From positions 5,551 through 69,550 of the IMG/VR virus record IMGVR_UViG_3300045996_003062: a DNA stretch of 64,000 nucleotides. One strand, given 5' to 3'. The translations under genes and the position numbers were made by a program. Positions 23,292-53,122 of the stretch are shown in pieces; the stretch's first letter is position 1, and every line of letters begins with the position of its first letter. The stretch comes from a virus (Duplodnaviria > Heunggongvirae > Uroviricota > Caudoviricetes). Below the pieces are notes generated by a model. The model made no database searches. It saw only the letters and a list, made by a program, of their open reading frames with translations, and was not told the origin of the DNA.

Positions 23292-23293
23292 CG

Positions 23294-36481: not shown

Positions 36482-36626
36482 TTGACCCGTTGCCCGCGCG
36501 CCTGTAGTTTGTAGTCGTACGCGCGGGAGACCGCGCAAGCCATAGGGGCGCAGGCCCCGTGACGGACCCGTACGTGGGGGCCGTGCTGGAATCTTCGGAT
36601 TCCGGCACGGCCCCTTTCGCGTTTCT
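36482..36626 (+). promoter_or_regulatory. repeated late promoter-like plus structured leader element, copy 1
   Basis: TTGACC-N17-TAGTTT, then CAAGCCATAGGGGCGCAGGCCCC, box CGTGACGGACCCGTACGTGGGGGCCGTG and UUCG-capped hairpin GCCGTGCTGGAATC/GATTCCGGCACGGC. Confidence 0.45.
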
Positions 36627-36645
36627 TCCGCCCTGACCCCGCGCG

Positions 36646-37200
36646 ATGGCGACCACGACCTACACCCCACCGACCCGAGAGCCCGCCGAGCTGGTGGCCG
36701 GCGACTCGTGGCGGTGGGACAGGACCGTGGAGGAGTTCCCGCCGAGCGGCGGGTGGTCGCTGATCTACTACTTCAACGGCCCGTCCGCCTTCAGCGTCAC
36801 CGCGGCGACGTCCTCGCTCGGCGACTACTTCGAGGTGCGCGAGGCCGCAGCTACGAACGCGGCGCGGACGGCGGGCAACTACCGAGTCTCGGGCTACGCG
36901 ACGGGTGGAGCCGACCGGTTCCTCGTGTTCGACGGACGGGTCCAGGTGCATCCGAACCTCGCGACCGCGGCAGCGACCGTGACGCACGCGCGGCGGATGC
37001 TGACGCAGATCGAGGAAGCGCTGGAGGCGGTCACTCCGACCAGCGGGACGTTCGCGAAGATCGCAGTGAACGGGCGGGAGGTCACCTACGACCATGCGGG
37101 CCTGATGAAGATGCGCGGAATCTACGCGGCGATGGTCGCGGCGGAGGAGAACCCCCGCGGACGCTTCAGGGAGATTCCGTTCCGCTTCGCCCGGAGGTAG
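36646..37200 (+). CDS. hypothetical head/connector protein (gpW position)
   Basis: between terminase and portal. Confidence 0.4.
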   Translation: MATTTYTPPTREPAELVAGDSWRWDRTVEEFPPSGGWSLIYYFNGPSAFSVTAATSSLGDYFEVREAAATNAARTAGNYRVSGYATGGADRFLVFDGRVQVHPNLATAAATVTHARRMLTQIEEALEAVTPTSGTFAKIAVNGREVTYDHAGLMKMRGIYAAMVAAEENPRGRFREIPFRFARR

Positions 37201-37203
37201 CCC

Positions 37204-38856
37204 ATGCGCTCGTTCGAGATGCCGCGGCGCGCAGGGCTGAGCGAGCGGCTACGGAGCGCGGTGGCAGATGCGTTCGGCGGTCCACAGGCGGTGCGGATCG
37301 GCCATATCCGAGGGGCGCCGCAGGCGCAGGCCGCCGCCACTCCGGCGCCGCCGATGCGGATTCGCGCCAACTACCAGGGCGCCGCGGGCGGCCGGCTGCT
37401 GGGCGACTTCGCGGCGCCGATCGGCCACCCGGACACCGCGATCCGGTACGCGCTGCCGAATCTGCGGGCCAGGTCGCGGGACCTGTGGCGGAACAACTCT
37501 TATGTCGCCGGCTTTGCCAACTCGCTCCGCGACAACGTCATCGGGTCCGAGGGGATTCAGCTCCAGGCGCAGATCCGGAAGGCGGACGGCAAACTCGCAC
37601 TGCCCACGTGCAGGAAGATCGAGGACGGGTGGAGGCAGTGGGGCGAGGCCGGCACGGCGACGATTGACGGGATGACTTCGTGGCTCGACGTCGAGTGGTT
37701 GTGCATCGAGAGCGTGGCGCGGGATGGAGAGGTGTTCGTCCGCGAGCGCCCCGGGGCCGACAACCGCTTCGGGTACACGGTCGAACTGATCGCGGCGGAC
37801 CTGCTGGATGAGACCTACGACGTGCCGCTGAACGCGGCCGGGGTCGAGATCCGGATGGGGGTGGAGTTCGACACCGCGACGGGGAAGCGCCTGGGCTACT
37901 GGTTCTGGCCGCGCCACCCGGACAGCAGGTACGGCGGCGGCCGGGGGCAGAAGCGGGTGTGGGTGGCCGCGTCGGAGATCATCCACCTCTTCGTCCAGCA
38001 GTACGTCGGCCAGACCCGGGGAGTGCCGTGGCTGGCGCCGGTGATCGCGGACCTCTGGATGTTCGCGGGGCTGACGGAGGCGGAGTTGACCGCTGCCAGA
38101 CTGGAAGCCTGCAAGATGGGCTTCCTCGTGAACAAGTCGGACGCCGCGATCCAGTCCTACACCGACCAGCAGGCGCTGGTGAACCCGACCGGCGACGGGG
38201 AGCGAGAGCCGATTTCGATCGACGTCGCCCCTGCCCTGTTCTCGGAACTGCCGCCCGGGGTCGAGTTCCAGCAGTTCGACCCGAGCCACCCGAACGGCAA
38301 CATCGGGAACTTCTCGAAACTGATTCTCCGCGGGATCGCCCGCGGCATCGGCATCTCCTACGGCACCCTGACCGGCGACCTGTCGGAGGCCAACTACAGC
38401 AGCATGCGGGCGGGACTGCTGCCGGAACGGGACCGGTGGCGAACGGTGCAGAAGTGGTTCTGGACGCGGTTGCACTCGCGGGTCTACCGCGGGTGGGTGC
38501 GGATGGCGGTGCTGACGCCGTCGCTGCGGGTGGATAGCCGCCTCGCCTCCGACTACTACGCGGTCACGTGGAAGGGCCGGGGCTGGCGCCCGGTCGACCC
38601 GCTGAAGGACCGGCAGGCGGACCTACTCGCCTGGCAGATGAGGGTGAAGCCGCTGGCCGACATCGCGGCGGATGAGGGGCGCGATCTGGAGGAAGTGTTC
38701 GCGCAGATCGCATACGAACAGGAGCTGGCGGCAGAGATGGGGATCGTGTTGCCGGCGCCGCTCGACGCAGCCGGAGCCACGGGCCCGGGCCAGCCGGACG
38801 ACGAACAGCCGCAAGCAGAACCAAGCGCCCAGCGCGCGTCCCTGCGCGTGGCCTGA
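37204..38856 (+). CDS. portal protein, lambda family
   Basis: 550 aa; lambda gpB-like conserved core. Confidence 0.8.
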   Translation: MRSFEMPRRAGLSERLRSAVADAFGGPQAVRIGHIRGAPQAQAAATPAPPMRIRANYQGAAGGRLLGDFAAPIGHPDTAIRYALPNLRARSRDLWRNNSYVAGFANSLRDNVIGSEGIQLQAQIRKADGKLALPTCRKIEDGWRQWGEAGTATIDGMTSWLDVEWLCIESVARDGEVFVRERPGADNRFGYTVELIAADLLDETYDVPLNAAGVEIRMGVEFDTATGKRLGYWFWPRHPDSRYGGGRGQKRVWVAASEIIHLFVQQYVGQTRGVPWLAPVIADLWMFAGLTEAELTAARLEACKMGFLVNKSDAAIQSYTDQQALVNPTGDGEREPISIDVAPALFSELPPGVEFQQFDPSHPNGNIGNFSKLILRGIARGIGISYGTLTGDLSEANYSSMRAGLLPERDRWRTVQKWFWTRLHSRVYRGWVRMAVLTPSLRVDSRLASDYYAVTWKGRGWRPVDPLKDRQADLLAWQMRVKPLADIAADEGRDLEEVFAQIAYEQELAAEMGIVLPAPLDAAGATGPGQPDDEQPQAEPSAQRASLRVA

Positions 38857-38862
38857 ACGGAG

Positions 38863-41436
38863 ATGCCGATGCAGACCAGAGTACCGAGGCGAGTCCTACA
38901 AGCGGTGAACGGCACCCCGTTGGCCGTCACCGCTGCGAAGGCGGCGGAGGTGTCGGCGTTCCTGGCGGCCGTCGCGGCCGGCGAGCGGATGACGAAGGGG
39001 GCGGCCCGCCAGAAGTTCGGCGCCGCTCGTCGGCCCTCGCCGATGCAGGGTGGCGGCGTGGCGATAGTGCCGATTCACGGGACGATCGTTCACCGCATGG
39101 ACGGCATGTACTCCTCGCTCGGCACGAGCATGGAGCGGCTAGTTCGCCAGATCGACGCCGCCGAGGCCAACGACGACGTCGCCGAAATCATCTTCGACGT
39201 GGACTCCCCAGGCGGGTTCGTCTCCCTGGTCGGCGAGACGGCCGAGCGCATCCGGGCGATGAAGAAGCCCACCACCGCGGTCATCAACACACAGGGGTGC
39301 AGCGCCGCCTACGACCTCGCTGCGGCTGCTGACGAGGTGGTCATCTCCCCGTCAGGCGAGGCGTGCAGCATCGGTGTCTTCATGGTCCACATGGAGTTCT
39401 CCGAGATGGCCGAGCGGGAGGGTATCCGCCACACCGTCATCAAGTTCGGAGCGAACAAGGCCGAGGGGAACCCGTACGAGCCGCTGTCGCCCGAAGCACT
39501 CGCCCACATGCAGGAGCAGGTGGACGAGTTCGGCACCGCCTTCGTTGCGCGTGTCGCGAAGCATCGCGGCGTGACGCCGGCGCAGGTGCGGGAGCTGATG
39601 GGCGACGGCCGCTCGCTGACCGCGAAGCAGGCTGTGAAGGCGAAGGCCGCTGATCGCGTGGCCTCGTTCGAGGATGTCCTCGCCGAGCGCGGAGTCCGCC
39701 GTTCCGCCTCCGCGCGAGCCGCGATGGAGCTTCCCGCTCGCGCCGCCCTGGCCGCGACAGCCGGCTGGAACGTGGACTGGCGGCCTCTCGCCGTCGCCCC
39801 GCGGGTCCAGATCCTCGTGCCTTCGCACCTTGCCGCGGCCGAGCCCACGACTGAAGAGCCGGAGATGTGCCCCGACTGCGGCGAGGACCTGGACGGCGAA
39901 GGCGCGTGCCCGGAGTGCGCCGATGCGGAAGCCGCGAGCGTGACGCCGATGTCGGAGACGCCCCGGGCTGGGGTGGTGGAGACGCCGCCCGCCGAGCAGG
40001 CCCAGGCACCGCCGGGCGGAACGCAGGACGCCGCGAGTACCGAGACGACTGAAGAGCCGAGCGCGGGCGGGGCCGCGGCACCGGCAGCGAATGACCCCCC
40101 CGCATCCCAACCGGCCCCCGAGGCCAGGAGTTCGACCATGGCTGAGAACATGGAGCAGGTCCCGGCCGCCGGGGCCACTGCGGTGCAGGACACGGCCGCC
40201 GCCGTTGCAGCGGAGCGCCAGCGGATCTCGGAGGTGACTGCGATGGCGATGGAGTACAACGTCGACGCCACCACACTCGCCGCGTGGCAGAACAACCCGA
40301 ACGCGACGCTCGGATCCGTCTCGCAGGAGATCCTTCGGCGCAACAAGGAGGCTGACGCCGCTCGCCCCTCCATCGCCGTGGGCGCGGACCGCGCGACCAC
40401 GAGGGCGTGGAGCAGCTTCGGTGAGCAGCTTACGGCCATCGCCGAGGCGGCGCGGCCGGGCGGGCGCACCGACCCGCGGCTCTACGCTGCCTCCGGCGCG
40501 TCGGCGGGCGTCGGCAGCGACGGTGGGTTCCTCATCCAGAAGGACTTCTCGTCGGAGGTCTACGAGAAGGCGTACGAGACCGGCATCCTCGCCTCCCGCT
40601 GCGACCAGGTGGAGATCAGCGAAAACTCCGACGGGCTGGAGGTGCCGTACATCGACGAGACCTCGCGCGCCAACGGCTCGCGCTGGGGTGGCGTCCGCGT
40701 GTACCGCCGCGCCGAGGCCGCCACCGTGACCGCGTCGAAGCCGGCGCTCGGCAAGTTCGAGGTCCGGCTGGAGGACCTGATGGGCATCGCCTACGCGACC
40801 GGCCGGCTCCTCCAGGACGCGACCGCGCTGGAGCAGGTGATGACCCGGGCGTTCTCGTCCGAGTTCGCGTTCAAGCTGGACGACGAGATCATCCGCGGCA
40901 CCGGCGCAGGGGAGTGCCTGGGCGTGCTCAACAGCCCGGCCCTCGTGTCCGTCGCGAAGGAGACCGGGCAGACCGCCGACACGATCGTCGCGGAGAACGT
41001 GCAGAAGATCTGGGCGCGCACCTGGGCTCGCAGCCGCACCAACGGCGTCTGGCTCTACAACCAGGAGTGCGAGCCGCAGCTTCAGTCGATGCAGATCGGC
41101 ACCGGCACCTCGGCGCAGCTCGTCTACCTGCCCGCGGGCGGCCTCTCCGGCCAGCAGTTCGCCACGATCTACGGGCGCCCCGCTCTGCCGATCGAGCAGG
41201 CGTCCGCTCTCGGCGACCTGGGCGACATCATGTTCGTCGACCTCGCCGAGTACGCCCTGATCCGCAAGGGCGGGATGCAGGCCGACCAGAGCATGCACGT
41301 CCGGTTCATCTACGACGAGATGGCCTTCCGCTTCATCATGCGCGTGAACGGCAAGCCCAAGTGGGCCTCGGCCCTCACCCCGTTCAAGGGCAGCGGTACG
41401 CAGTCGCCGTTCGTCGCCCTCGCGGCTCGCGCCTAA
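38863..41436 (+). CDS. fused prohead protease (S49/ClpP-like), scaffold/linker and HK97-fold major capsid protein
   Basis: single 857 aa ORF; N-terminal S49 peptidase region; zinc ribbon CPDCGEDLDGEGACPEC; C-terminal HK97 capsid core. Confidence 0.7.
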   Translation: MPMQTRVPRRVLQAVNGTPLAVTAAKAAEVSAFLAAVAAGERMTKGAARQKFGAARRPSPMQGGGVAIVPIHGTIVHRMDGMYSSLGTSMERLVRQIDAAEANDDVAEIIFDVDSPGGFVSLVGETAERIRAMKKPTTAVINTQGCSAAYDLAAAADEVVISPSGEACSIGVFMVHMEFSEMAEREGIRHTVIKFGANKAEGNPYEPLSPEALAHMQEQVDEFGTAFVARVAKHRGVTPAQVRELMGDGRSLTAKQAVKAKAADRVASFEDVLAERGVRRSASARAAMELPARAALAATAGWNVDWRPLAVAPRVQILVPSHLAAAEPTTEEPEMCPDCGEDLDGEGACPECADAEAASVTPMSETPRAGVVETPPAEQAQAPPGGTQDAASTETTEEPSAGGAAAPAANDPPASQPAPEARSSTMAENMEQVPAAGATAVQDTAAAVAAERQRISEVTAMAMEYNVDATTLAAWQNNPNATLGSVSQEILRRNKEADAARPSIAVGADRATTRAWSSFGEQLTAIAEAARPGGRTDPRLYAASGASAGVGSDGGFLIQKDFSSEVYEKAYETGILASRCDQVEISENSDGLEVPYIDETSRANGSRWGGVRVYRRAEAATVTASKPALGKFEVRLEDLMGIAYATGRLLQDATALEQVMTRAFSSEFAFKLDDEIIRGTGAGECLGVLNSPALVSVAKETGQTADTIVAENVQKIWARTWARSRTNGVWLYNQECEPQLQSMQIGTGTSAQLVYLPAGGLSGQQFATIYGRPALPIEQASALGDLGDIMFVDLAEYALIRKGGMQADQSMHVRFIYDEMAFRFIMRVNGKPKWASALTPFKGSGTQSPFVALAARA

Positions 41437-41454
41437 CCCGAAAGGACGACTTCC

Positions 41455-41931
41455 ATGACCAGTCAGTGGACCGAGCGGAACCACGTCGTGAAGGGGCTGG
41501 ACCCGGTGGCGGATGCCTTCGCGGGCACCGTCACGAGTGACGTGGTGAGCCTGCGCGCGCACAACAAGGCCATCTTCGAGATCTACAAGGGCGTCGGCGC
41601 GACCGGCACCTCCACCGTCACCGTCGAGGCGTGCGACGACTTCGCCGCCTCGAACACCACCGCCGTCCCGTTCCGCTACCGTCGGTGCTGCAACACGGCC
41701 GACGTGCAGGGCGTGCTCACCGAGGCAACCGCCTCCGGGTTCGCCACCACGGCGGGGTCGTCCGAGATCTACGTGATCGAGGTCGCGGCGGCAGACCTGG
41801 CGGGGACGGACAAGGGCAACGTCCGGCTCAAGATGGTCGAGGTCGTCGACAGCCCGGTTCTCGGCGGCATCACGATCCGCCTCGCGGAGCCGACGTACGC
41901 GCAGGACGTCCAGCCCACCGCGATCGCGTAA
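41455..41931 (+). CDS. hypothetical head protein (possible decoration)
   Basis: position after capsid. Confidence 0.4.
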   Translation: MTSQWTERNHVVKGLDPVADAFAGTVTSDVVSLRAHNKAIFEIYKGVGATGTSTVTVEACDDFAASNTTAVPFRYRRCCNTADVQGVLTEATASGFATTAGSSEIYVIEVAAADLAGTDKGNVRLKMVEVVDSPVLGGITIRLAEPTYAQDVQPTAIA

Positions 41932-42026
41932 CCGACAGGAGGCGGCGGGCGGATGCCCGCCGCCTCGCCCCTGTTTCGGTCAACCACTGATCGGCGCCAG
42001 ACGGCGTCGGAACAGGAGATGTTCGG

Positions 42027-42764
42027 ATGTCCATCAAGGCCAAGTACGCAAGCCAGACGCTGCGCCACTTCGAGAGCACGACCCACGAGTCGGTACAGAT
42101 CCTCGCGCCGGTCCAGTACTACGACGACTTCCTCGGCGCCGCGACGGTGATCCCCGCCGCGGGATCGCCGGAGTCGGGGACCGAGTGGGTGAAGAAGATC
42201 GTGGGCGCCGCGCCCCCGACGCTGGCCGTCAAGGCAGATGCGGTGAGTGGCGTAGTGGAGGCCGCGCTCACGGCGGACTCCCAGAAGCAGAACGCCGAGC
42301 TGTACATGGACGACCAGCGGCAGTTCTCGCTGCTCCAGGGGCTGGTCTTCGAGGCGCGCTTCCGAGCGACCGTTCTCCCCACGGGGAACGCAGAGGCCGT
42401 GATCGGGCTCGTCGGAGACTGGGCCGATGGCCTGGACGCGGCCACCTACTCCGTGTTCGTCACGCTCGATGGTTCCGGCGAGATCATCTGCGAGATGGAC
42501 GACAACGCCACCGACCGCTCGGCGACCTCCGGCGTGACGCTGGTGGCGGACGAGTGGGCCATCGTCCGCATCGACGCCTCCGATCCGGCCGACGTTCTCT
42601 TCTATGTGAACGGCAACCGCGTGGCGTCGGGCACCACCTTCGCCTACGCGGCCACTGGCGCCAACGCCGTGCTCCAGCCGATCGCGGGCGTCTACAAGGC
42701 GAGCGGCACCGGCGTCGGCACGCTGGAGGTGGACTACATCCGCATCGCTCAGGAGCGGAGCTAA
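42027..42764 (+). CDS. hypothetical structural protein (beta-rich)
   Basis: track ORF. Confidence 0.4.
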   Translation: MSIKAKYASQTLRHFESTTHESVQILAPVQYYDDFLGAATVIPAAGSPESGTEWVKKIVGAAPPTLAVKADAVSGVVEAALTADSQKQNAELYMDDQRQFSLLQGLVFEARFRATVLPTGNAEAVIGLVGDWADGLDAATYSVFVTLDGSGEIICEMDDNATDRSATSGVTLVADEWAIVRIDASDPADVLFYVNGNRVASGTTFAYAATGANAVLQPIAGVYKASGTGVGTLEVDYIRIAQERS

Positions 42765-42771
42765 GCCGAAC

Positions 42772-43038
42772 ATGGGTGTCAAGTTCATGTCTGTTCCGGT
42801 GACGGCTCTCCTCCGCGCTGGAGAGGGCGGGTGGGCCGTCACGGTCCGCCCGCCTAGCGAGGCGATTCCGCCCGATGCGCGCGTCGTGGCCGCGGAACTG
42901 AGGACCGACCCGGAAGACGGAAGCCAGCAGGTCGAGCTGAAGATCGAAAGCTCCTCCTACCCGGCGGACAACGGGTGGAGGAACCGTGTGCCGGGGCGCC
43001 TGCTGGTCTCTCACCCTGACGGGACCTGGGAGCGGTGA
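42772..43038 (+). CDS. hypothetical protein
   Basis: track ORF. Confidence 0.35.
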   Translation: MGVKFMSVPVTALLRAGEGGWAVTVRPPSEAIPPDARVVAAELRTDPEDGSQQVELKIESSSYPADNGWRNRVPGRLLVSHPDGTWER

Positions 43039-43331
43039 ACGCCGCCCTGACCGAGGCCCTGTTCCGCGCCGCGTTCGGAGCGGCCGGTGTGTTCAACGGC
43101 GCGACGACCTACGGCCATCTGGACGTGGCCGACGAGGTCATGCTGGACAGCGCCGGCTACGACGGCGGCGTGACCGATGGCGTGCTGATCTACCGGTTCG
43201 CCACCGGGCGGCTCCCGGGCCTGCGCACCAACTCCGAAATGACGGTGGACGGAAACGCCTACCGCGTGTGGAAACTGATGCGGGAACAGGACGGCGGGGT
43301 CTCCGCCGCCTACCTCATCGACCCTGACTGA
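43035..43331 (+). CDS. head-tail connector-like protein
   Basis: position, size. Confidence 0.35.
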   Translation: MNAALTEALFRAAFGAAGVFNGATTYGHLDVADEVMLDSAGYDGGVTDGVLIYRFATGRLPGLRTNSEMTVDGNAYRVWKLMREQDGGVSAAYLIDPD

Positions 43332-43346
43332 CGAAAGGAGGACGGC

Positions 43347-43679: not shown

Positions 43680-43682
43680 CCC

Positions 43683-44377: not shown

Positions 44378-44806
44378 ATGGCCCGCTACGCTGCGAAGGG
44401 AACGCTGCTGAAGATCGGTGACGGGGGCGGCTCGGAAGTCTTCACGACCATCGCCCAGGTCATGACGATCTCCGGCCCCAGCCTGTCCATGGACACGCTC
44501 GACACCACCGACCACGATGCCGCGTCGTTCAAGACGTTCGTCGGATCGTACCGCGACGGCGGTGAGGTGACGCTGGAGATCCACTGGGACCCCGCGACGG
44601 CGACGCACGGGGTGACCACCGGTCTTCTGAAGAAGTTCAAGGACTCCAGCTCGCCGACGAACTACCAGCTCGTGTTCCCCGACACTGGGGCTACGACGTG
44701 GTCGTTCGCCGCGCTGGTCACGGCGTTCGCGCCCTCGGCCCCGCACGACGGCAAGCTCACGGCCTCCGTCACCCTGAAGGTCTCCGGCGCTCCGACGCTG
44801 GCGTAA
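44378..44806 (+). CDS. major tail (tube) protein
   Basis: 142 aa; immediately upstream of G/GT chaperones. Confidence 0.6.
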   Translation: MARYAAKGTLLKIGDGGGSEVFTTIAQVMTISGPSLSMDTLDTTDHDAASFKTFVGSYRDGGEVTLEIHWDPATATHGVTTGLLKKFKDSSSPTNYQLVFPDTGATTWSFAALVTAFAPSAPHDGKLTASVTLKVSGAPTLA

Positions 44807-44824: not shown

Positions 44825-45178
44825 ATGAGTATCCTCGTGCCCACCGTGACGGTGGAGATGGACAAGCCGCGGACGATGCGGATGGACTACAACGCCCTGG
44901 TCGCGATCAAGAAGCGGACGGGCGTCAACATCCTCGGTGGCGGCTTCGACGTGTCGGACCCGGAGCTTCAGGTCGTACTCATCTGGGCGTTGCTCCGGGC
45001 TGAGGATCCGTCGCTGACCGAGGAGCAGGTAGGCTCCATGCTCCACCTCGGGAACATCGCCGCGGTGTCCGCGAAGGCCACTGAGCTGATGTCGTCCGCG
45101 TTCGCGCCGGCATCCACCGGCGACGCGCCCGCCGCGGAGGTGGCCGAGGCCGCCGACCCTTTGCCCGCCGCGGCCTGA
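44825..45178 (+). CDS. tail assembly chaperone (gpG-like)
   Basis: position before tape measure; frameshift partner downstream. Confidence 0.6.
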   Translation: MSILVPTVTVEMDKPRTMRMDYNALVAIKKRTGVNILGGGFDVSDPELQVVLIWALLRAEDPSLTEEQVGSMLHLGNIAAVSAKATELMSSAFAPASTGDAPAAEVAEAADPLPAAA

Positions 45179-45489
45179 GCCTCGAAGAGACGTGGGCCGT
45201 CGCAGTGTACGACCTGCGTCTCTCCGAGGAAGCGTTCGGGCGAATCACCCCGGTGCTGTTCGCGCAACTGCTGGAGCGTCACGCGCAGGCCCAGCGGGGC
45301 GCGATGCTCCGCGCCGGCCTGGTGGCTGCGGCCGTCATCAACTCGCAGGGCGGGATCAAGGGGCGAGCGGTCACGCCCCAGGAGATGATCGGCGAGGAGG
45401 AGCCCATGCAGGACATCTCCGCGTTCATCGGATTGCTTGAGGCGAACGGGGTAGAGTTGGAGCGGGGCGAGGCGGAGGTGGAAGGATAG
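44825..45489 (+). CDS. tail assembly chaperone GT-like fusion via programmed -1 frameshift
   Basis: slippery heptamer C CCT TTG at 45157-45163 in the zero frame; the -1 frame is open from there into ORF 45205..45489. Confidence 0.5.
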
Positions 45490-45490
45490 A

Positions 45491-45526
45491 AGCGGGGCCG
45501 CAGGCATCGCGCCTGCGGCCCCGCTC
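45491..45526 (+). terminator. perfect 14 bp GC hairpin after the GT stop
   Basis: GCGGGGCCGCAGGC-ATCGC-GCCTGCGGCCCCGC. Confidence 0.45.
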
Positions 45527-45574
45527 CTCTGCAACCATCCTGCCCCGCCAGACCTCACCTTGACTCGCCGTAAC

Positions 45575-45795
45575 AAGCCTTGCCATGCCTGCCCCACCTC
45601 GCCTCTCCATGCCTAGCCGCACCTGCCGAGCCATGCCATGCCTCGCCATGCCGCGCCACGCCTCGCGAGGCCTTGCCTGCCTCGCCGTGCCCCTCCTCAC
45701 CTCACCACGCCAAACCATGCCTAGCCGCGCCTGCCGGCCCTGCCGTGCCTAGACTTACCATGCCCGTCCTCGCCATGCCATGCCTGCCGCGTATC
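45575..45795. repeat. degenerate microsatellite of CCATGCC / GCCTSGCC units
   Basis: at least 9 CCATGCC copies in 220 bp of noncoding DNA between convergent units. Confidence 0.55.
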
Positions 45796-45801
45796 GCCGA
45801 T

Positions 45802-46290
45802 CTACGCTGCTGGGTTCCCTACCCTGTCGATCTCCGCAAAGATGGATGCCAACTCCGACAGGTGCTCGTAGCGCTTCCTCCACTGCTTCGCCTCGTCCAT
45901 CGCCCGGAACACGACCTGGCGGCGCAGGTCCGCGTCCGACATCGCGACGACGGTGGAAGTATATCCGCGCTCCTCGTTCTCCACCACGCTCACGAAGGCG
46001 CGCACCGCCACCGGCGCCGCCTTCGTCTCGGCGCGGTCCACTCGTACGACGACGGAGCGGATGAGTTGGCGCGCCTGCACCTCCCGGTAGCGCTCCGCCG
46101 CCGCGCCGTCGTTCCACTCGAAGCAGGGGTGGAGCGGCGAAGCGATGTCGCGCGCATCCTCGACGACCTGGCCGGGAGCCAGCGAGCCTCCAGCCTCGAC
46201 CCGCAGTGCCTCCAGGCGCTCGCCGATGACCTGCGCGTCGCCGGGAATGCGCGCGTCCGGTTTCCACTCGTATCTGTACACCATCGCCAT
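45802..46290 (-). CDS. moron operon gene 4, hypothetical protein
   Basis: RBS GGAGGG; 3 nt after upstream stop. Confidence 0.55.
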   Translation of the reverse strand: MAMVYRYEWKPDARIPGDAQVIGERLEALRVEAGGSLAPGQVVEDARDIASPLHPCFEWNDGAAAERYREVQARQLIRSVVVRVDRAETKAAPVAVRAFVSVVENEERGYTSTVVAMSDADLRRQVVFRAMDEAKQWRKRYEHLSELASIFAEIDRVGNPAA

Positions 46291-46293
46291 CGG

Positions 46294-46923
46294 TCAGCCC
46301 TCCGCCTCGGTCGCGACGTGAAACATGCCGAAGGAGCCGTCCTTCGCCGGTCGCCACTCGCCGACGCCGATCGCGAAGCCTGCGGTGTTGAACAGGTTCA
46401 CGATCTGCTCCGCGGAAAGGACGCCGGCGTTGTGGCGGACCGGGAGGACGACAGACCACGCCTTGAACTCCGCGCGGTGGCGGATGTCGGCCGTCCCCAT
46501 CCCGATGCGGACCATGTCCTCGCGAATCTCGGGAGATCCGTGGATCTCCACAAACTCGCCGGTGACGTGGAACGCGCCGCGCGCTTGGACCTTCGTGACG
46601 CCCTCGATGTGCGAGCACGCGTCCACCGCCGCGGCCTTGAAGCCGACCACCGGGAAGCCGAAGCGCGCGGCCGCGACGTCCTCCGGGCTCGGGTTCGCGG
46701 GACGCGGGCTCAGCCAGTACAGCGAGTCGCAGTAGTCGCGGAACGGGTCCTTGGCCTCCTTCGCTGCCTTCGCCTTCTTCATCTGCTTGTCCAGCATCAT
46801 CTTCTTCGCCTTGTCGCTCCATGCGTGCACGATCAGCGGCGAGTCGCCGACGAGCTTGATGTGCAGCGTGCGCAGGTCCAGCCTGGGGAGTTCGATCGAC
46901 TCGGCCTGAGGGATACGTGCCAT
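46294..46923 (-). CDS. moron operon gene 3, hypothetical protein
   Basis: start MARIPQ with RBS GAGAGG; track ORF 46294..46992. Confidence 0.55.
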   Translation of the reverse strand: MARIPQAESIELPRLDLRTLHIKLVGDSPLIVHAWSDKAKKMMLDKQMKKAKAAKEAKDPFRDYCDSLYWLSPRPANPSPEDVAAARFGFPVVGFKAAAVDACSHIEGVTKVQARGAFHVTGEFVEIHGSPEIREDMVRIGMGTADIRHRAEFKAWSVVLPVRHNAGVLSAEQIVNLFNTAGFAIGVGEWRPAKDGSFGMFHVATEAEG

Positions 46924-47017
46924 GTGCGTGACCTCTCGTGAGTATGGGGGGAGAACGATGCAGGGATACGCGCCGGAAAGCAATGGCTCCACCGGGGCGC
47001 ATCCCTGCGATGGTTGC

Positions 47018-47434
47018 CTACCGCAGCACCGCGGCGAGATCGAACTTCCCGTCGTGGTCTAGCCGCAGGTCCTGACGGAGCGAGTCCAACGCGGCGCAGA
47101 CGAGCGCGTCGTGGTCCGCCTCCAGCCGGGTGTCGGTCGACAGCGACACGAGCGCGCAGACCCGTCCCGCGAAGACCCCCCACTTCTCGTTCCACTCGTT
47201 GTCCTTCGCCCAGTTGGCGCGGAGCCCGTCCCGGAGGCCGTGCCAGTCGTCGCGGAGCTGCGTCCACGTCGGCTGGATGTGCTCAGTCATCTGCGGCGGA
47301 TCGGTCTCGCCGTCCACCCGCACCCGGTCCGCCATCGCGAAGAACGGGGCGAGCCGGGCGTCCACGTACAGAACCGCCGCGGCGGAGACCGGCATCCCCT
47401 CGGCGCTCGCCGCCTTCCAGTCGCCGCGGCTCAT
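47018..47434 (-). CDS. moron operon gene 2, hypothetical protein
   Basis: start MSRGDW with RBS GGAGGG; ATGA overlap with gene 1. Confidence 0.55.
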   Translation of the reverse strand: MSRGDWKAASAEGMPVSAAAVLYVDARLAPFFAMADRVRVDGETDPPQMTEHIQPTWTQLRDDWHGLRDGLRANWAKDNEWNEKWGVFAGRVCALVSLSTDTRLEADHDALVCAALDSLRQDLRLDHDGKFDLAAVLR

Positions 47435-47598
47435 CGGACGCCCTCCGCGTCGGCGTCCATGCACCACCCGCAGACCCCCGCCGGCTCCCCCGCAACGACC
47501 GTGGCGAACATCGGCTCCCACTCCCGCATCTCACGCGCGCAGATGTAGCACGTCGCCTCCGTGCCCGCCTTGCGCTCCACCACTACCGCTGCGCTCAT
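47431..47598 (-). CDS. moron operon gene 1, small zinc-ribbon protein
   Basis: CYIC...CGWC; RBS GGAGGG. Confidence 0.5.
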   Translation of the reverse strand: MSAAVVVERKAGTEATCYICAREMREWEPMFATVVAGEPAGVCGWCMDADAEGVR

Positions 47599-47738
47599 GT
47601 GCACCCTCCGGCTGTTGACCCGGCCGACGGCGAGGGCGAGATTGAGCACGCCGGGCCTTCGGGTCTGGTGAGTTTGGGGGAGTCGGCGCGTGTCTCTTGG
47701 AGGGGATGTCGCGTCGGCTCCCTTGTTCTTCCTCGCTC

Positions 47739-47790
47739 GTGTCAATATACTCTATAGACAGAGCGTGTCAATAGCCACAGTAGACAGGCA
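47739..47790. promoter_or_regulatory. divergent promoter/operator; lowest-GC patch of the window
   Basis: minus strand TTGACA-N16-TATATT (-35 at 47766-47771, -10 at 47744-47749); + strand TATACT at 47746-47751; two 26 bp direct repeats starting GTGTCAATA at 47739 and 47765. Confidence 0.5.
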
Positions 47791-48012
47791 ATGGAATTCC
47801 GCGAGGCGGTGGCAGTGCTGGGCCAGACGGTCACAACGGCCGAGATTGCGGATGCAGCCGGGGTCTCGGTGGACTCCGTCCGCCAGGCGAGGCTGAGGCC
47901 GGGAGGGTCTGGCTATCGACCTCCTCCGCAAGGATGGAGGGATGTCGTCATCCGGCTCGCGGAGGAACGAATCCGGCGGCTGGAGCAACTGGTGAAGGAG
48001 CTGAGGGGCTAA
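47791..48012 (+). CDS. small HTH regulator
   Basis: TTAEIADAAGVSVDSVRQARL. Confidence 0.5.
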   Translation: MEFREAVAVLGQTVTTAEIADAAGVSVDSVRQARLRPGGSGYRPPPQGWRDVVIRLAEERIRRLEQLVKELRG

Positions 48013-48105
48013 CGCCCTTCGGCTCCTTTTCGCTTGCGAAACTGTCGCGAGAGGCGCTACCGTGTGAGCCCCTAGGAGCGCAGTGTCCCCTCCCCCCTCC
48101 GCCTC

Positions 48106-48810
48106 ATGCGCCGCTACCTGCTCGCCGCCATCGCTGCCGCCTCGCCGCTTCTCACCTCGTGCGCCATGGGCGCGCACGGCGCAAGATACGAATTGTCGCT
48201 CCAACGGGTGGAGCGGCCGGCTGACGCGACCGCGCAGTACGGCGCCCAGCGCGTGGACCGAATCGCAGATGCGGCAGGTAGGCAGTTCCGCTTCTCGGAC
48301 GACGTGGTCGAGGTCGAGTGGACCGTGACCAGCGAACGCATCGGGCTTCGCCTCAGAAACAAGTCCGACCACAGCATCCGAGTCCTCTGGGACAACGCTG
48401 CATACGTGAGCCCGGATGGCGTAAGCCACCGTGTTATGCACACGGGCGTGCCTTACGCATCCCGGAACGAGCCGCAGCCGCCAAGCGTCGTGGTTCGGGG
48501 AGGCGAGATCCGCGACGAGATCGTCCCCACCGACTATGTGTTCCTTGCAACCGCCGTGAACTGGGAGACACGTCCGTTCCTGCAACTTGTCGGCGGCAAT
48601 CCCGAGAAGCAGTCAGAGGCCCTGGTCGGCAGGACGGTGCGGGTACTGCTCCCGCTGGAGATTCGGGGCGTTCAGAACGACTACCTGTTCACGTTCGGCA
48701 TCGACCGCGTATGCTTCTGGCCGCCGAGGTACGACGCGCTCGGTCGTATGTTCGTTCCAGAGCCGAAGAACCAGAAGTGCGTACCTGCGGTTGCGGCGGA
48801 CAAGGCGTAG
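48106..48810 (+). CDS. lipoprotein
   Basis: signal peptide with lipobox LLTSC. Confidence 0.6.
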   Translation: MRRYLLAAIAAASPLLTSCAMGAHGARYELSLQRVERPADATAQYGAQRVDRIADAAGRQFRFSDDVVEVEWTVTSERIGLRLRNKSDHSIRVLWDNAAYVSPDGVSHRVMHTGVPYASRNEPQPPSVVVRGGEIRDEIVPTDYVFLATAVNWETRPFLQLVGGNPEKQSEALVGRTVRVLLPLEIRGVQNDYLFTFGIDRVCFWPPRYDALGRMFVPEPKNQKCVPAVAADKA

Positions 48811-48904
48811 CAGCCTTAGGGCGCTCGGCTCGACCGCGGCGACCGCGAAGTGTGCGCAGCAGCCAGAATGGCTCGGTGGAAATCCCGTCACCCCAGGGCC
48901 CAAC

Positions 48905-49240
48905 GTGAGGACTCGCCACCTGCTGCTTGCTGTCGCAGTGTGCCCGCTAGTCGCATCCGGATGCGCAGGCCTCGGTGACATCTCGGCGGCTCCGGACGTC
49001 GCCGCTGCCCAGGAAGCCTGTAACAAGGAAGTCACGTCACGCTTACTCGCTCCTTCGCAGGCCGTGGTCCAGCCGGACCCGCTCCGGCTGCGGGAGCCGT
49101 ATGACAACGAGAACGTGTACAGATCCTCGTTCTACGTGGATGCTCCGAACGCGTACGGAGTGATGCTCCGCTCCCGGCATTCGTGCGTCGCCGTTGCCGA
49201 AGAAGACGGATGGTACGTTGTGTCCGTGAAGGATGAGTGA
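48905..49240 (+). CDS. lipoprotein
   Basis: GTG start; lipobox LVASGC. Confidence 0.5.
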   Translation: MRTRHLLLAVAVCPLVASGCAGLGDISAAPDVAAAQEACNKEVTSRLLAPSQAVVQPDPLRLREPYDNENVYRSSFYVDAPNAYGVMLRSRHSCVAVAEEDGWYVVSVKDE

Positions 49241-49249
49241 ACCTTCCCG

Positions 49250-49370
49250 TTGAGCCGGCGGCGCAGATGTAGTAGATTACAAGCCATAGGGGCGCAGGCC
49301 CCGTGACGGACCCGTACGTGGGGGCCGTGCTGGAATCTTCGGATTCCGGCACGGCCCTTTTCGCGTTTCT
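49250..49370 (+). promoter_or_regulatory. repeated late promoter-like plus structured leader element, copy 2
   Basis: TTGAGC-N17-TAGATT, then the same CAAGCCATAGGGG...CGTGACGGACCCGTACGTGGGGGCCGTG box and UUCG hairpin as copy 1. Confidence 0.45.
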
Positions 49371-49372
49371 AC

Positions 49373-52300
49373 ATGCGGACCATGGCAAATCCCACGCTCC
49401 TCATTCGCATCGCAGGCGACATCGCAGACCTCCAGCGGAAGACGCAGGAGGCGAACGCGCTGGTTGCCAACGTCGCGACGCGGATGCAGCAGATGGGTAC
49501 GCAGATGACCGCCGCACTGAGCGTTCCGCTCATCGCGCTCGGGGCCATCTCGGTGCGCTCCGCGGTCCAGGTGGAGTCCGCGTTCAACGCAGTGAAGAAG
49601 ACGACGGGCCAGAGCGCCGAGGAAATCCAAGCGCTCAAGGTTGCGTTCAAGGAAATGAGCGAGGGGTTCGCTGTCCAAGGGGGCGTAAAGCAACTCGCCT
49701 CCATCGCAGCGACGGCCGGGCAGCTTAACGTCGCCGCTCAGTTCATGGAGGAGTTTGTCCAGACGACGGCGAGGCTGGATGTTGCGGTCGAATCGCTGAG
49801 CGCAGAGGAAGCGGCCACGGGGCTCGCGCAGTTCGCGAACATCACGCGGACGTCACAAGCCGAGTTCGACAACCTCGCCTCGGCGCTTGTCGACCTTGGC
49901 AACAACGGCGCGTCCACTGAACGCGCCATCATGGACATGGGTCTGCGGCTGGCCGGCGCGGGCGCTCAGGTCGGCATGTCGCAGGGCCAGATCCTCGGCT
50001 TTGCCAACGCTTTGGCGTCAGTGGGGATTGAGGCGGAGAGCGGCGGCAGCGCGTTCAGCCGCTTGTTCGCTGAGATCGGGAGCGCAGCCGCCAGCGGCGG
50101 AAAGCAACTGGAGAAGTTCGCCCGTGTCGCTGGGACTCCGACGGCTGCATTCCGGGAGTTGGCGAAGACGGATTCGGCCGCGGCAGTCATCGCCTTCGTG
50201 GAAGGCCTGAAGCGGTTGAAGGATCAGGGTGAAAACGTCTTCGCGGTCTTGGAGAACCTAGGCATCTCGGAGATCCGGATGCGGGACGCGCTCCTCCGCG
50301 CGGCGGGCGCAGGCGACCTCCTCCGCGAGAGCGTAGAGCGTGGTTCGCGTGCGTACGCGGAGAACACCGCGCTGGCGAAAGAGGCGGACCAGGCGAACCA
50401 GAGCACGGCGGCGCAGTTCCAGCGACTCCGGAATGCGGCGGAGAACGTGGTCGCGGAGTTCGGCGAGGGGCTTCTCCCTGCGTTCCGTACGATGATCGAA
50501 GTGCTGCGGGCCGCGGTCGAGCCGCTTCGCGCGGTCATGGCCGGGTTCGGGGCGTTGCCAGAGTGGGTTAAGGGCACGACCGTAGCCGTAGCTGCCCTCG
50601 CGGTCGCGATCGGCCCTGCGATGCTGGCGGTCTCCGGACTCGCCCGCGCCATGCTGGTCCTGCAAACTGCTGCGGCGGTCGCGACGGTCGGCATGGCGGG
50701 ATTCCGTAACGTCATCGCAGCCGTGTCACTGGTGTCGTCAATCCGCTCCGCAGCCGATGCAACGGCCCTGCTAAAAATGTCGCTGGGCGGGCTCGCCGGT
50801 CTCGTCTCGCCCGGCGGGCTAGTGATGGTGGGGCTCGCCGCCCTCGCAGTTCTTTTCGTGAACGCGGGCCGCCGCGCGCAGGAAGCTGCACGCGCCGCTC
50901 AGGAGGCCGCAGATAAGTTCCGCACCGCCTTGGCGGGTATGGGGCTGGCATCCATTCACATCGAGTTGGATGTCAAATACGAACGCCGGAAAACTCTCCG
51001 CTCGGCCTTGCCCCAGCGCATGGCTGAACAGGAGGCCGAGGATGCACGCATGGCCGGCGCCAGGGCGCGCGCCGGCCGCGGCGCCGTATCGCTTGAGGAC
51101 TCGCCTGAGGCGCGGGAGAGACGCAAGTGGATCGCAGACTCTCTGGAGGAACTACAGAGACTCGACCGCGAGATCAACGAGTTGAACGAGCGGGCGGTGG
51201 CGATTGGGGTGGAGGAAGAGAAGCTCCGCGCCGTCGTCGGAGCCGGACCCGCGTCGGGGCTGGACACCGTCACGGAGGGCACGGAGAAGAAGAAGCAGCC
51301 GTACGAGGACCTTCGACGCCGCATTGAGGGGACGGCCGAGGCGTTGCAGTACCTGCGCACCAAGGTGCGCGAAACGAGCGATTACGCGCAGATGGTGGAG
51401 GCGCTTGACACGCTTACCGCCGCGCAGGCGGAGGCGGCCAAGGAAGCGAGCCGCCACGGCCTTGCGATTACCGACGAGGCGCGCGCCGCTCGACAACTCG
51501 CCACGGCCGCGCGGGAGGCCGCCGCGGGAGCCGGGATGGCGCCGGACTTCACGCTCCAGAACAGCTTCGGAGTCAAGCCGCCGACCGCGTTCATCGATCC
51601 CGACGAGTACCGTCGTAGGTTCGGCGTCCCCGCGCTCCAAGACGCGTCAGACGCAGCCGAGCTCTTCGACCAGCGCTTGGAAGAGTTGGCCCAGCGGGTG
51701 CGCGGGCTTTCGTCCTTGGGCCGGGTGTTTGGAGCCTTCGGCAACTCCCTCGCGAGGGTCGCCGACGATGCGGCCAACCTCATCTCAGGATTCAAAGACC
51801 TCGGGAGTGTCGGCGGTGGCGTGACTGGCATCCCGTCGATGACTGAGTTGCTGACCAGCGGTCCCGGCTTGCAGGTGATGGGTGCCATTGGGTCGCTGGC
51901 AAGCGGGCTGCTCGGAAGCATGTTCGGGGAGTCGGAGGCAGAGCGCGAGCGGAACAACCTGATGCGCCAGAACAACCAGGCGCTGAAGGATCTGACCGCC
52001 CGCGCCGCCGGGCTGATGGTGTCCGGCAACTCGCTCGTCGCCGCGCGCGGCGCCCTCGGCGGCGTCACCGCGTCGGGCCTGAGCAGCCTGAAGGGGCTGG
52101 GCCTGGGCGCCGTCAACGGGTCGAATCAGCGGGCGTTCCTTGAAGGGATCGGGATGTCGCTGGCGCAGCTCAAGCTCATCGCGGAGAGCGCCGGCATCAC
52201 GATCGTGGACGAGCAGGGCCGGCTCATTGGGGCAGCGCTGAAGCAGCTCGGGGAGGCGATTGGGCCGCTGATCGACACACTCACGAAGTTCAACAAGAAC

Positions 52301-52975
52301 AGCTTTGCGGACCTCACGACGCTCGCCGACGCGCGCGCCCAGATCTACGGGACGGCGGACGACCCGATGGCGGCGTTGCAGGCGCAGCTCGCCACGTTCG
52401 AGGCGGTGGCGGGTGGGGCTGCGGGCGCGTTCGGTCTGGACGACGCGCTCGCAAGCTCCGCAGAGGGACGCGCCGCCATCCAGGAGGGGATCAAGCAGCT
52501 CTTCGAGATGATCGCCAGCAACACGCTGACGCCGGAGATGCTGGGCGGGTTCACTTCGGTCCAGGAGATGTTGCAGGCGTTGCTCGGCGTGAACACGGCG
52601 CTTGGCGGCCTGGCCGACGCGGCAGGCAAGGCGGCGGGGTCGATGCAGAACGTCGCGTCCGGCTTCAAGTACCAACTCCGCGCATTCCAGGCGATGGATG
52701 CTCGGATCATCGGTGGCGCTGCGCCGACGATGCCGCCTCCGTTCACGGGCGCAGCGCCCGTGGGGGGACGGACGCCCACGTCTCGCCCGCGTACGGGGGA
52801 GACGGGCGGAGCGCTTACGCTGAATGGTGGCCTGACGGTCAACGTCGTCGCGCCGGCAGGCAGCGACCCGGACGCGTTCGCGCGCGCCATCTACCCGGCG
52901 CTCCGCCGTGAGATCGTGTCGAAGGCGGCGAGCCGCGGGCGTCGGGCCCAAGAGATCGCCGAAGCACTTCCCTGA
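49373..52975 (+). CDS. tail tape measure protein
   Basis: 1200 aa, Ala-rich coiled-coil, directly after G/GT region. Confidence 0.85.
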   Translation: MRTMANPTLLIRIAGDIADLQRKTQEANALVANVATRMQQMGTQMTAALSVPLIALGAISVRSAVQVESAFNAVKKTTGQSAEEIQALKVAFKEMSEGFAVQGGVKQLASIAATAGQLNVAAQFMEEFVQTTARLDVAVESLSAEEAATGLAQFANITRTSQAEFDNLASALVDLGNNGASTERAIMDMGLRLAGAGAQVGMSQGQILGFANALASVGIEAESGGSAFSRLFAEIGSAAASGGKQLEKFARVAGTPTAAFRELAKTDSAAAVIAFVEGLKRLKDQGENVFAVLENLGISEIRMRDALLRAAGAGDLLRESVERGSRAYAENTALAKEADQANQSTAAQFQRLRNAAENVVAEFGEGLLPAFRTMIEVLRAAVEPLRAVMAGFGALPEWVKGTTVAVAALAVAIGPAMLAVSGLARAMLVLQTAAAVATVGMAGFRNVIAAVSLVSSIRSAADATALLKMSLGGLAGLVSPGGLVMVGLAALAVLFVNAGRRAQEAARAAQEAADKFRTALAGMGLASIHIELDVKYERRKTLRSALPQRMAEQEAEDARMAGARARAGRGAVSLEDSPEARERRKWIADSLEELQRLDREINELNERAVAIGVEEEKLRAVVGAGPASGLDTVTEGTEKKKQPYEDLRRRIEGTAEALQYLRTKVRETSDYAQMVEALDTLTAAQAEAAKEASRHGLAITDEARAARQLATAAREAAAGAGMAPDFTLQNSFGVKPPTAFIDPDEYRRRFGVPALQDASDAAELFDQRLEELAQRVRGLSSLGRVFGAFGNSLARVADDAANLISGFKDLGSVGGGVTGIPSMTELLTSGPGLQVMGAIGSLASGLLGSMFGESEAERERNNLMRQNNQALKDLTARAAGLMVSGNSLVAARGALGGVTASGLSSLKGLGLGAVNGSNQRAFLEGIGMSLAQLKLIAESAGITIVDEQGRLIGAALKQLGEAIGPLIDTLTKFNKNSFADLTTLADARAQIYGTADDPMAALQAQLATFEAVAGGAAGAFGLDDALASSAEGRAAIQEGIKQLFEMIASNTLTPEMLGGFTSVQEMLQALLGVNTALGGLADAAGKAAGSMQNVASGFKYQLRAFQAMDARIIGGAAPTMPPPFTGAAPVGGRTPTSRPRTGETGGALTLNGGLTVNVVAPAGSDPDAFARAIYPALRREIVSKAASRGRRAQEIAEALP

Positions 52976-52982
52976 CCGCGGG

Positions 52983-53122
52983 TTGAGCCGTGGCGGCAAA
53001 CGTTGTAAGTTTGTCGCAGCAGCAGAATCGACCGCGATAGCGCCTTCGGGCGCGTGACGGACCTGTACGTGGGGGCCGTGGCTTCATCGGAGACGATGGG
53101 GCTACGGCCCATTTCGCGTTCC
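52983..53122 (+). promoter_or_regulatory. repeated late promoter-like plus structured leader element, copy 3 (diverged hairpin)
   Basis: TTGAGC-N17-TAAGTT, then CGTGACGGACCTGTACGTGGGGGCCGTG and an imperfect hairpin. Confidence 0.4.

Follow-up and report, generated by a model that had tools for sequence, protein, structure and literature searches.

A repeated promoter-leader cassette before the late-gene blocks of an uncultivated tailed phage

Here we describe a composite element that occurs three times, always on the + strand, in a 64,000-nt stretch of DNA (hereafter the window) from an uncultivated tailed phage (IMG/VR record IMGVR_UViG_3300045996_003062, positions 5,551 to 69,550). Each copy joins a promoter-like module to a structured leader RNA, and the copies (36482-36626, 49250-49370 and 52983-53123) stand before the head genes, the tape-measure gene and the distal tail genes, respectively. 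The element is best called a repeated phage promoter-leader cassette, whose RNA matches no described family. Its function can only be inferred. Our preferred reading, to which we give a probability of roughly 0.37, is that the modules are late promoters firing into the leader, in which a long hairpin (P2) would act as a promoter-proximal attenuator, and the linker in front of P2, together with the base of its stem, as the recognition site of a read-through signal.

The three composites had been proposed in a first-pass annotation, and its promoter hexamers (TTGA(C/G)C, a 17-nt spacer and TA(G/A)NTT) were found in all three copies. Its 28-nt box, CGTGACGGACCYGTACGTGGGGGCCGTG, has three + strand occurrences (36558, 49302 and 53053) and none in 100 shuffles, even with three mismatches allowed. 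The distance between the -10 hexamer and this box, estimated there at 25-40 nt, measured 47, 23 and 41 nt. The two hairpins it assigned to copies 1 and 2 are indeed present there but are not restricted to those copies, as copy 3 has both with another sequence. Its P2 stem also stands, but is longer than described, the ACGUG/CGCGU pairs across a UUU bulge bringing the total to 22-23 bp. A covariance model built from the three copies (R1) and searched over the window, as that annotation had suggested, found exactly those three; with filters off, the whole window yielded the three copies plus unrelated hairpins. The parts of the element are as follows.

36482-36510, + strand: copy 1 promoter-like module, TTGACC (36482-36487), 17-nt spacer, TAGTTT (36505-36510), 16 nt past the terminase stop
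36521-36536, + strand: hairpin unique to copy 1, GCGCGG-GAGA-CCGCGC, upstream of the conserved RNA and past the predicted start
36541-36626, + strand: copy 1 leader RNA, with P1 at 36545-36558 (GGGGC-GCAG-GCCCC), linker at 36559-36571 (GUGACGGACCCGU) and a U-rich tail running to 36626; R1 score 111.6 bits, folding free energy (dG) -38.2
36572-36622, + strand: copy 1 P2, ACGUG, 17 bp and a UUCG loop, UUU bulge at 36615-36617, CGCGU at 36618-36622
49250-49278, + strand: copy 2 promoter-like module, TTGAGC, 17-nt spacer, TAGATT, 9 nt past the stop of the upstream open reading frame (ORF)
49285-49370, + strand: copy 2 leader RNA, with P1 at 49289-49302, linker at 49303-49315 and P2 at 49316-49366; a single mismatch to copy 1, R1 score 110.1 bits
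52983-53011, + strand: copy 3 promoter-like module, TTGAGC, 17-nt spacer, TAAGTT, 8 nt past the tape-measure stop
53036-53123, + strand: copy 3 leader RNA (diverged), with P1 at 53040-53053 (GCGCC-UUCG-GGCGC) and linker at 53054-53066 (GUGACGGACCUGU); R1 score 93.2 bits, dG -33.4
53067-53119, + strand: copy 3 P2, with another upper stem, a GAGA loop and the UUU bulge at 53112-53114
36615-36626, 49359-49370 and 53112-53123, + strand: P2 tail stretches, carrying UUUCGCGUUUCU

The hairpin unique to copy 1 was read from the sequence, and the minimum-free-energy fold of 36510-36645 pairs that stretch otherwise. The leader itself, of ca. 86 nt, comprises a 5-bp P1 with a tetraloop, a 13-nt linker (GUGACGGACCYGU), the 22-23-bp P2 and a UUUCGCGUU tail. 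In P2, five basal pairs (ACGUG/CGCGU) are separated by a 3'-side UUU bulge from 17-18 more pairs, and all folds returned the same architecture. From the last paired base of P2 to the start codon there are 24, 7 and 28 nt in copies 1, 2 and 3, respectively.

This RNA structure is real and, for a three-copy element, unusually well supported. Stretches of 95 nt containing the conserved RNA folded with z-scores of -4.3 to -6.1 against shuffles, and a longer copy 3 stretch (53008-53147) with a z-score of -2.65. In the three-way alignment, 98.8% of the cells are paired, and six pairs (two in P1 and four in upper P2) are changed on both sides in copy 3 relative to the other two copies, compared with 2.0 ± 1.2 in shuffles and at most two in slid registers, none of which reach six. 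Fold energies are -55.3, -53.6 and -49.9 kcal/mol on the + strand versus -46.5, -43.2 and -34.2 kcal/mol on the - strand, a gap of 9-16 kcal/mol. Several leader pairs are G-U, and these, with the better folding of the + strand, argue for a constraint on the sense RNA and not on duplex DNA. Substitutions between copies 1 and 3 are also unevenly distributed, affecting 22 of the 38 columns in P1 and the top of P2 but only 2 of the 42 columns in the linker, P2 base, bulge and extension (Fisher p=2.3e-7), which argues that the linker and stem base are constrained in sequence and the remainder in pairing alone. This pattern points to a putative sequence-specific recognition of the linker and stem base. 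The sole linker change, C to U, leaves a possible small ACG/YGU pairing as G-U.

Compensatory changes, folding asymmetry and substitution pattern agree with the view, already put forward in the first-pass annotation, of a promoter-like module followed by a structured, conserved leader RNA. The evidence speaks against its other suggestion, an array of DNA sites bound by a late activator, since the conserved part lies past the predicted start at a variable distance (about +4 to +30) and the variable parts keep their pairing through double changes and G-U pairs, workable only in the + strand RNA. Translated, every copy yields a VTD(P/L)YVGAV frame, rightly taken there for a by-product of nucleotide conservation: in copy 1 it closes after 25 codons, in copy 2 it enters the tape-measure gene out of frame, and only in copy 3 does it join the downstream gene in frame. 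A leader peptide or other coding reading of the box was rejected because the frame differs between copies. In copy 3, a frame opening at a GTG inside the box (53054-53491) is in frame with the downstream gene, for which ATG 53147 or GTG 53135 is a likelier start. An anti-terminator pairing between the 3' strand of P1 and the 5' strand of P2, seen by inspection as GGCCCC with GGGGCC in copies 1 and 2, fails in copy 3 and was likewise set aside.

The promoter-like modules are as exclusive as the leader. The pattern TTGNNN-17-TANNTT matches only the three copies on both strands of the 64 kb. A looser pattern (TTGNNN-16..18-TANNNT) gave 6 matches, compared with 11.4 ± 3.3 in shuffles; all six are intergenic, three being the elements and the other three surrounding an inserted cassette at 47.7-48.1 kb. 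This rarity and intergenic placing argue that the promoter-like part is not due to chance, and assign it to a very restricted group of sigma-70-type sites in the phage. With the promoter only 8-16 nt past the preceding stop, the intergenic spaces consist almost wholly of promoter and leader. The sequences fit the ordinary sigma-70 type (TTGAsC-17-TAnnTT), and not the phage-specific form of promoter proposed at first. Transcription is predicted to start near 36517, 49285 and 53018, which would place the beginning of the conserved block at about +1, +20 or +25, depending on the copy. The loose sigma-70 pattern has no match on either strand in window 1-36000, all six lying at 36-53 kb; transcription of the early and middle genes may start at promoters beyond the window or of another type.

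The window has a G+C content of ca. 69% throughout, and nearly all of its genes are carried by the + strand. The portal protein has one identical counterpart at JGI, encoded by a 97-kb contig, and the second-best hit among 5.8 billion proteins is 48% identical to it; no match to cultured phages was found at the DNA level. The late genes around the element are listed below.

33864-34427: Nu1-like small terminase
34417-36465: gpA-type large terminase
36646-37200, + strand: head-tail joining protein (phrog_5774), first gene after copy 1
37204-38856: lambda-family portal
38863-41436: S49 protease-HK97 capsid fusion, an 857-aa ORF
44378-44806: major tail protein, preceded by the tail terminator
44825-45489: likely chaperones, named by position and one PHROG 'tail protein' match
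49373-52975, + strand: tape-measure protein of 1200 aa (phrog_13339, E=1.4e-77), between copies 2 and 3, without Shine-Dalgarno sequence
3' of the tape-measure gene: distal tail genes
53147-53491, + strand: small protein, first gene after copy 3, starting at ATG 53147 or GTG 53135

Copy 1 is thus found between the large terminase gene and those for the head-tail joining protein, portal and protease-capsid fusion, copy 2 ends 3 nt 5' of the tape-measure ATG (49373), and copy 3 comes after the tape-measure stop at 52975. This gene context bears out the first-pass view that the elements mark late-block boundaries, but not that of one uninterrupted late operon, which is broken by an insertion of ca. 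3.9 kb with minus-strand genes. A Shine-Dalgarno sequence is absent for the first genes after copies 1 and 2, including the head-tail joining gene, of which ATG 36646 is the sole possible start, and for the gene at 48106, which follows a promoter-like site at 48034. It is weak at most (GGTGGTG) for the gene after copy 3, a frame with high third-position GC, and most other genes of the window carry GGAG or AGGAGG. The occurrence of the S49 prohead protease and the HK97-fold major capsid protein in a single ORF is a feature kept in all seven relatives that were fetched (see below).

The insertion is informative about the history of copy 2. It is made up of the following features.

45490-49372: insertion of ca. 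3.9 kb, between the likely chaperone genes and the tape-measure gene
45491-45525, + strand: strong 15-bp hairpin
45530-45800: strand-asymmetric C-rich array of degenerate CCATGCC / GCCATGCC / CCTCGCC words, flanked by this hairpin and by the 3' end of a minus-strand gene
45802-47649, - strand: four genes, two of them matching PHROGs of unknown function (E=1e-25 and 3e-27)
47720-47790: AT-rich divergent control region with two 21-bp operator-like sites, TGTCAATA-N5-WRTAGACA
47771, - strand, and 47723, + strand: promoters of this control region, TTGACA-16-TATATT and TTGTTC-17-TATACT, respectively
47791-48012, + strand: small helix-turn-helix gene with its own terminator-like hairpin
48106-49240, + strand: two ORFs

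This region could be a moron, an immunity or a defence cassette. The chaperone and tape-measure genes are adjacent in relatives, and by separating the tape-measure gene from the genes upstream the insertion makes new transcription necessary. Copies 1 and 2 share 99% identity over 91 nt (36536-36626 versus 49280-49370), a block extending from 1 nt past the -10 hexamer of copy 2 into the U-rich tail, so that its limits equal those of the predicted short transcript. Apart from the hexamers, the copy 2 promoter is unrelated in sequence to that of copy 1. Copy 2 therefore looks like a recent copy of the copy 1 leader, probably set behind another promoter after the insertion. Since the leader accompanied the promoter function, it may be needed for productive late expression and not be a mere stop signal.

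As far as the collections searched can tell, the element is confined to this one uncultivated genome. With Rfam 15, only six tRNAs passed the gathering threshold over the whole window, and permissive scans of copies 1 and 3 returned chance hairpins (miRNA models, E about 1-10) far under the gathering scores. DNA patterns of 21-24 nt drawn from the linker had no match in IMG/VR or in JGI metagenomes and two chance coding matches in GTDB genomes (one per species). Ten IMG/VR matches to a 16-base pattern all failed to fit R1. A pattern combining the P2 base and tail had no viral match and ten in metagenomes, all without P1 and linker and corresponding to coding sequence or unrelated terminators. 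Nor did R1 match anything in 49 terminase-related viral contigs (the IMG/VR terminase relatives being at most 38% identical) or in seven portal-related contigs.

These seven contigs (L052 to L058), whose portals are 46-48% identical, have a gene order in common with the window, and in most of them the terminase gene is followed by cargo genes, then by an intergenic gap directly preceding the head-tail joining gene. In L052 this gap contains TTGACA-17-TACGTT and, ca. 50 nt further on, a hairpin (AGCCCCC...GGGGGCU) without U-tract. In L053 it contains a hairpin followed by TTTTTTCG, with a TTGACC lacking a matching -10 and a weaker match upstream, and in L054 a hairpin followed by TTTTCTGTTT, with promoter-like hexamers. 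The head-gene start codon is without Shine-Dalgarno sequence in L052, L053 and L054 too, and the gaps of the other four contigs are structured. L052 (portal 48% identical) has a 47-nt leader hairpin in two copies (9330-9376 and 17218-17264) that are 87% identical and unrelated to the element of the window, the first being that of the head-gene gap and the second lying directly before the tape-measure gene, without a promoter and followed by TTTTTGTTTT; no within-genome repeats were found in L053 to L058. Judged from these contigs, a structured leader with a terminator-like hairpin before the head block is recurrent in the clade, and L052 has independently duplicated its own version before the tape-measure gene. 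As for the conserved counterparts in related phages evoked by the first-pass annotation, a sequence homologue was missing from every collection searched, and a same-position repeat was present in L052 only, with an unrelated sequence.

In the mechanism that we favour, each copy would be the head of one late transcription unit. A host-type sigma-70-like promoter, just past the previous stop, would initiate transcription, and the polymerase would immediately make P1, the single-stranded linker, P2 with its bulge and the U-rich tail. P2 and this tail would form a promoter-proximal terminator or attenuator, which would also halt or mark transcripts coming from the upstream block. The linker and the P2 base would be bound by a phage or host factor, or the RNA would act directly on the polymerase, the outcome being that transcription continues through the head, tape-measure and distal-tail genes. 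Of the four strongest hairpins on the + strand of the window, three are the P2 hairpins, the fourth being 45491-45525, and the P2 hairpins alone have a T-rich tail. In our own computation of a d'Aubenton-Carafa-type score for a hairpin plus U-tail, they reached +12.5, +5.7 and -3.5, every other + strand hairpin scoring -7 or less. P2 and its U-rich tail, with a promoter directly upstream, have the anatomy of a promoter-proximal attenuator, and the variable distance to the promoter fits an RNA signal (nut, put) better than a DNA signal (Q). The constraint on the sequence of linker and stem base fits a site recognized for read-through. The relatives agree with this reading, L053 and L054 by the hairpin with a clear U-tract before their head gene, and L052, as a parallel case, by its two-copy leader hairpin.

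Several points weigh against this mechanism. The U-tract is poor (UUU, then CGCG, then UUUCU) and partly pairable with ACGUG, and a consensus terminator scan did not call the P2 sites. The P2 stems, at 17-18 bp, are about twice as long as those of usual terminators (7-9 bp), and in one studied system terminator stems of 15 bp resisted processive antitermination (PMC10325885), so that the polymerase might be unable to pass P2 if this is an efficient terminator. Among ca. 60 ORFs scanned in the window (Pfam; 8 ORFs by PHROGs only), none was recognized as a Q-like, N-like, sigma or RNA polymerase protein, a scan to which ca. 33 kb of the 97-kb source contig are external, and no Pfam or PHROGs match among the ORFs scanned designated a regulator gene. 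The transcript starts and ends are predictions. The three copies cannot be aligned in their promoter spacers or initially transcribed regions, and this speaks against a DNA site of the lambda-Q type. Finally, two of the three sequences are near-identical, so that the whole comparative signal rests on one diverged copy.

One of the closest described systems is lambda PR'-tR', a constitutive promoter from which transcription is halted at once unless the polymerase is modified (PMC7547250). Both have an activator-free host-type promoter and a hairpin with a U-rich tail within ca. 100 nt, before late genes, and in both the product expected unless read-through occurs is a short RNA (cf. 6S RNA and StxS; PMC7547250). 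In contrast to lambda, there are three units and not one. No Q-like protein was recognized in the window, the promoter spacer bears no conserved DNA site, and a -10-like pause element at constant spacing is missing; what is conserved resides in the RNA, at a variable distance from the start. Moreover, the first unit follows the terminase genes, whereas that of lambda precedes the lysis genes. The logic of our preferred mechanism would be that of PR'-tR' combined, three times, with an RNA-level nut- or put-like signal. Lambda nut itself was rejected by inspection of the alignment, which has no word resembling CGCUCUUA, the boxA consensus used for the comparison, and in which the loop of the small hairpin changes between copies from GCAG to UUCG. 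The put RNAs of HK022 (putL and putR), functionally the nearest analogue, measure ca. 70 nt, have two stem-loops and lie downstream of PL and PR (PMC9378689), with several sequence-sharing copies per genome. They act in cis and without protein, through the beta' zinc-binding domain. The present leader also places two stem-loops downstream of promoter-like sites, in three copies, but the put stems are adjacent and bulged and serve early operons, whereas the 86-nt leader has near-perfect stems, a 13-nt linker and a U-rich tail, and serves late blocks. Searched with filters off against the whole HK022 genome, R1 gave a best hit of 8.1 bits (E=2.3) and nothing at about 22.5-39.7 kb, which we take to be the region of the put sites, put being unannotated in the record. 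Rfam had no match in HK022 27.6-30.1 kb, and so has no put model. The conAn systems of Gram-positive conjugative plasmids also combine a main promoter with a structured 5' leader (conAn2), required for read-through of a long operon (PMC8191782, PMC10325885); they depend on a small protein, conAn1, encoded beside the RNA, with one copy per operon, and no such gene is evident here. It is rather doubtful that the leader represents a new class of cis-acting antitermination RNA, loading onto the polymerase at every late promoter of a high-GC siphovirus, either alone (put-like) or with a phage protein that would read the linker and the bulged P2 base. In that case, related phages would each have a private version, as in L052.

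Among the other explanations, the main rival is a processing or stability site of the T7 kind, which we consider rather unlikely. P2 would be cut by RNase III or another double-strand-specific nuclease, cleavage at the bulge leaving the upstream mRNA with a protective 3' hairpin and the downstream mRNA with a defined 5' end, and the promoter would merely boost the block. In T7, RNase III sites are intergenic and lie just past promoters at gene-block boundaries; Dunn and Studier are said to have reported in 1983 T7 promoters just upstream of several such sites, and the T7 RefSeq record that we fetched lists promoters and leaves RNase III sites unannotated. The T7 sites (R1.1, R3.8, R4.7, R6.5 and R13) likewise form a series of related hairpins, about two turns long and carrying a bulge or internal loop. 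Their promoters are those of a phage polymerase and they have internal loops, in contrast to the 3-nt bulge found here, and the invariant single-stranded linker has no T7 counterpart. In the diverged copy, P2 stays at 22-23 bp (two helical turns) despite a changed upper stem and loop, and the bulge stays 5 bp from the stem base. With 17-18 + 5 bp on the two sides of the bulge, it has the build of an RNase III-type helix, about two turns long and interrupted. Substrates of E. coli RNase III typically comprise two helical turns, and bulges or internal loops limit the enzyme to cutting one strand, leaving 3' hairpins that protect from exonucleases (PMC1540722). The stems are overlong for ordinary terminators, and the tape-measure hairpin of L052, of a like kind, has no promoter. 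Yet a processing site does not explain why the 13-nt linker and P2 base are invariant as the remainder drifts, RNase III requiring no such sequence, and the equivalent hairpins of relatives bear plain, terminator-typical U-tracts. It is improbable that the copies are three genes for one small regulatory RNA of ca. 85-110 nt acting in trans on mRNAs of host or phage. Their own promoter, 5' hairpin, seed-like linker (the most conserved part) and terminator hairpin reproduce the usual anatomy of such RNAs. The unit predicted to extend from start to terminator coincides with the block common to copies 1 and 2, StxS, the short PR'-tR' transcript of Shiga-toxin phages, provides a precedent (PMC7547250), and such an RNA would be compatible with attenuation, as a by-product or second function. 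Against it, no target of the linker emerged in the window (best duplex -27.5 kcal/mol, versus a mean best of -28.6 kcal/mol for shuffled seeds), the placing right before the first genes of late blocks is left without explanation, and efficient termination would still block essential late genes.

A translational operator or enhancer of each block's first gene, with a protein on the linker and P2 base or ribosomal protein S1 on the U-rich tail controlling how ribosomes load on start codons 3-25 nt behind P2, seems very improbable. It would account for first genes devoid of Shine-Dalgarno sequences (weak at most after copy 3) among genes that mostly have them, for the tape-measure ATG lying 3 nt past the element and for the homologous head gene of relatives, which also follows a hairpin and a U-rich stretch without Shine-Dalgarno sequence. 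Against it, the distance from P2 to the start codon varies, it has no candidate binding protein, and by our own estimate three genes without Shine-Dalgarno sequence would occur by chance in ca. 4% of cases. Least credible is a DNA-level site, either a repressor operator or roadblock, or a recombination linker like the PeSL elements of T4-type phages. Repressor-type sites for comparison are the L5 stoperators and the conserved inverted repeats of phiC31, and the cassette is, like a DNA site, repeated in one orientation, intergenic and downstream of promoters, with a near-identity of copies 1 and 2 that gene conversion or recent duplication would explain. Stoperators and inverted repeats were rejected on the compensatory changes, the G-U pairs and the + strand advantage of 9-16 kcal/mol: the six double changes and G-U pairs keep the hairpin in the + strand RNA alone, the - strand folds worse, and the C to U change of the linker keeps a G-U pair yet weakens the DNA palindrome ACGGACCCGT. 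PeSLs are intergenic repeats of ca. 100 bp that combine a sigma-70-like promoter with a stable GC-rich stem-loop and mediate module shuffling (PMC2839356, PMC4122927). In contrast to the cassette, they have the stem-loop upstream of the promoter or overlapping it, where it terminates transcription from upstream, and a Shine-Dalgarno sequence at the 3' end, and their dozens of copies flank orphan genes in hyperplastic regions. The cassette has the opposite order, with hairpins downstream of the promoter, and its three copies precede core structural genes with no Shine-Dalgarno sequence after them. The cassette shares logic with each of the known systems considered and lacks testable hallmarks of each, except that it has the T7-type helix.

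Other features of the window were recorded. Six tRNA genes (Thr, two Ser, Glu, Leu and Gln), a T4 Rnl1-like RNA ligase and a metallophosphatase, a set located at 927-999, 22801-25965, 26586-27842 and 11894-12670, suggest tRNA repair. A pair of 37-nt repeats made of AAACCCGGACCA words (9952-9988 and 10186-10222), 84% identical, lies in an early intergenic stretch. GC-rich hairpins without U-tracts (41939-41966, 42825-42855 and 28853-28887; stems of 12-14 bp, -28 to -29 kcal/mol) sit between + strand genes, one of them directly past the gene that follows the capsid gene.

To our knowledge, only a few model phages have a well-understood control of their late genes (lambda Q, Mu C, P2 Ogr and T4 gp55). 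An ordinary host-type promoter always joined to one structured RNA, before the head, tape-measure and distal-tail genes, provides a clean case, in which the kind of constraint differs from one part of the leader RNA to another. Should this leader gate read-through, the cassette would be a promoter-plus-RNA switch, compact and portable, and would add a new example of polymerase control at the RNA level; as a mere processing or terminator hairpin, it would amount to ordinary phage punctuation. Even then, the near-identity of copy 2 behind an unrelated promoter, after an insertion, would illustrate how a phage can mend an operon cut by an insertion.

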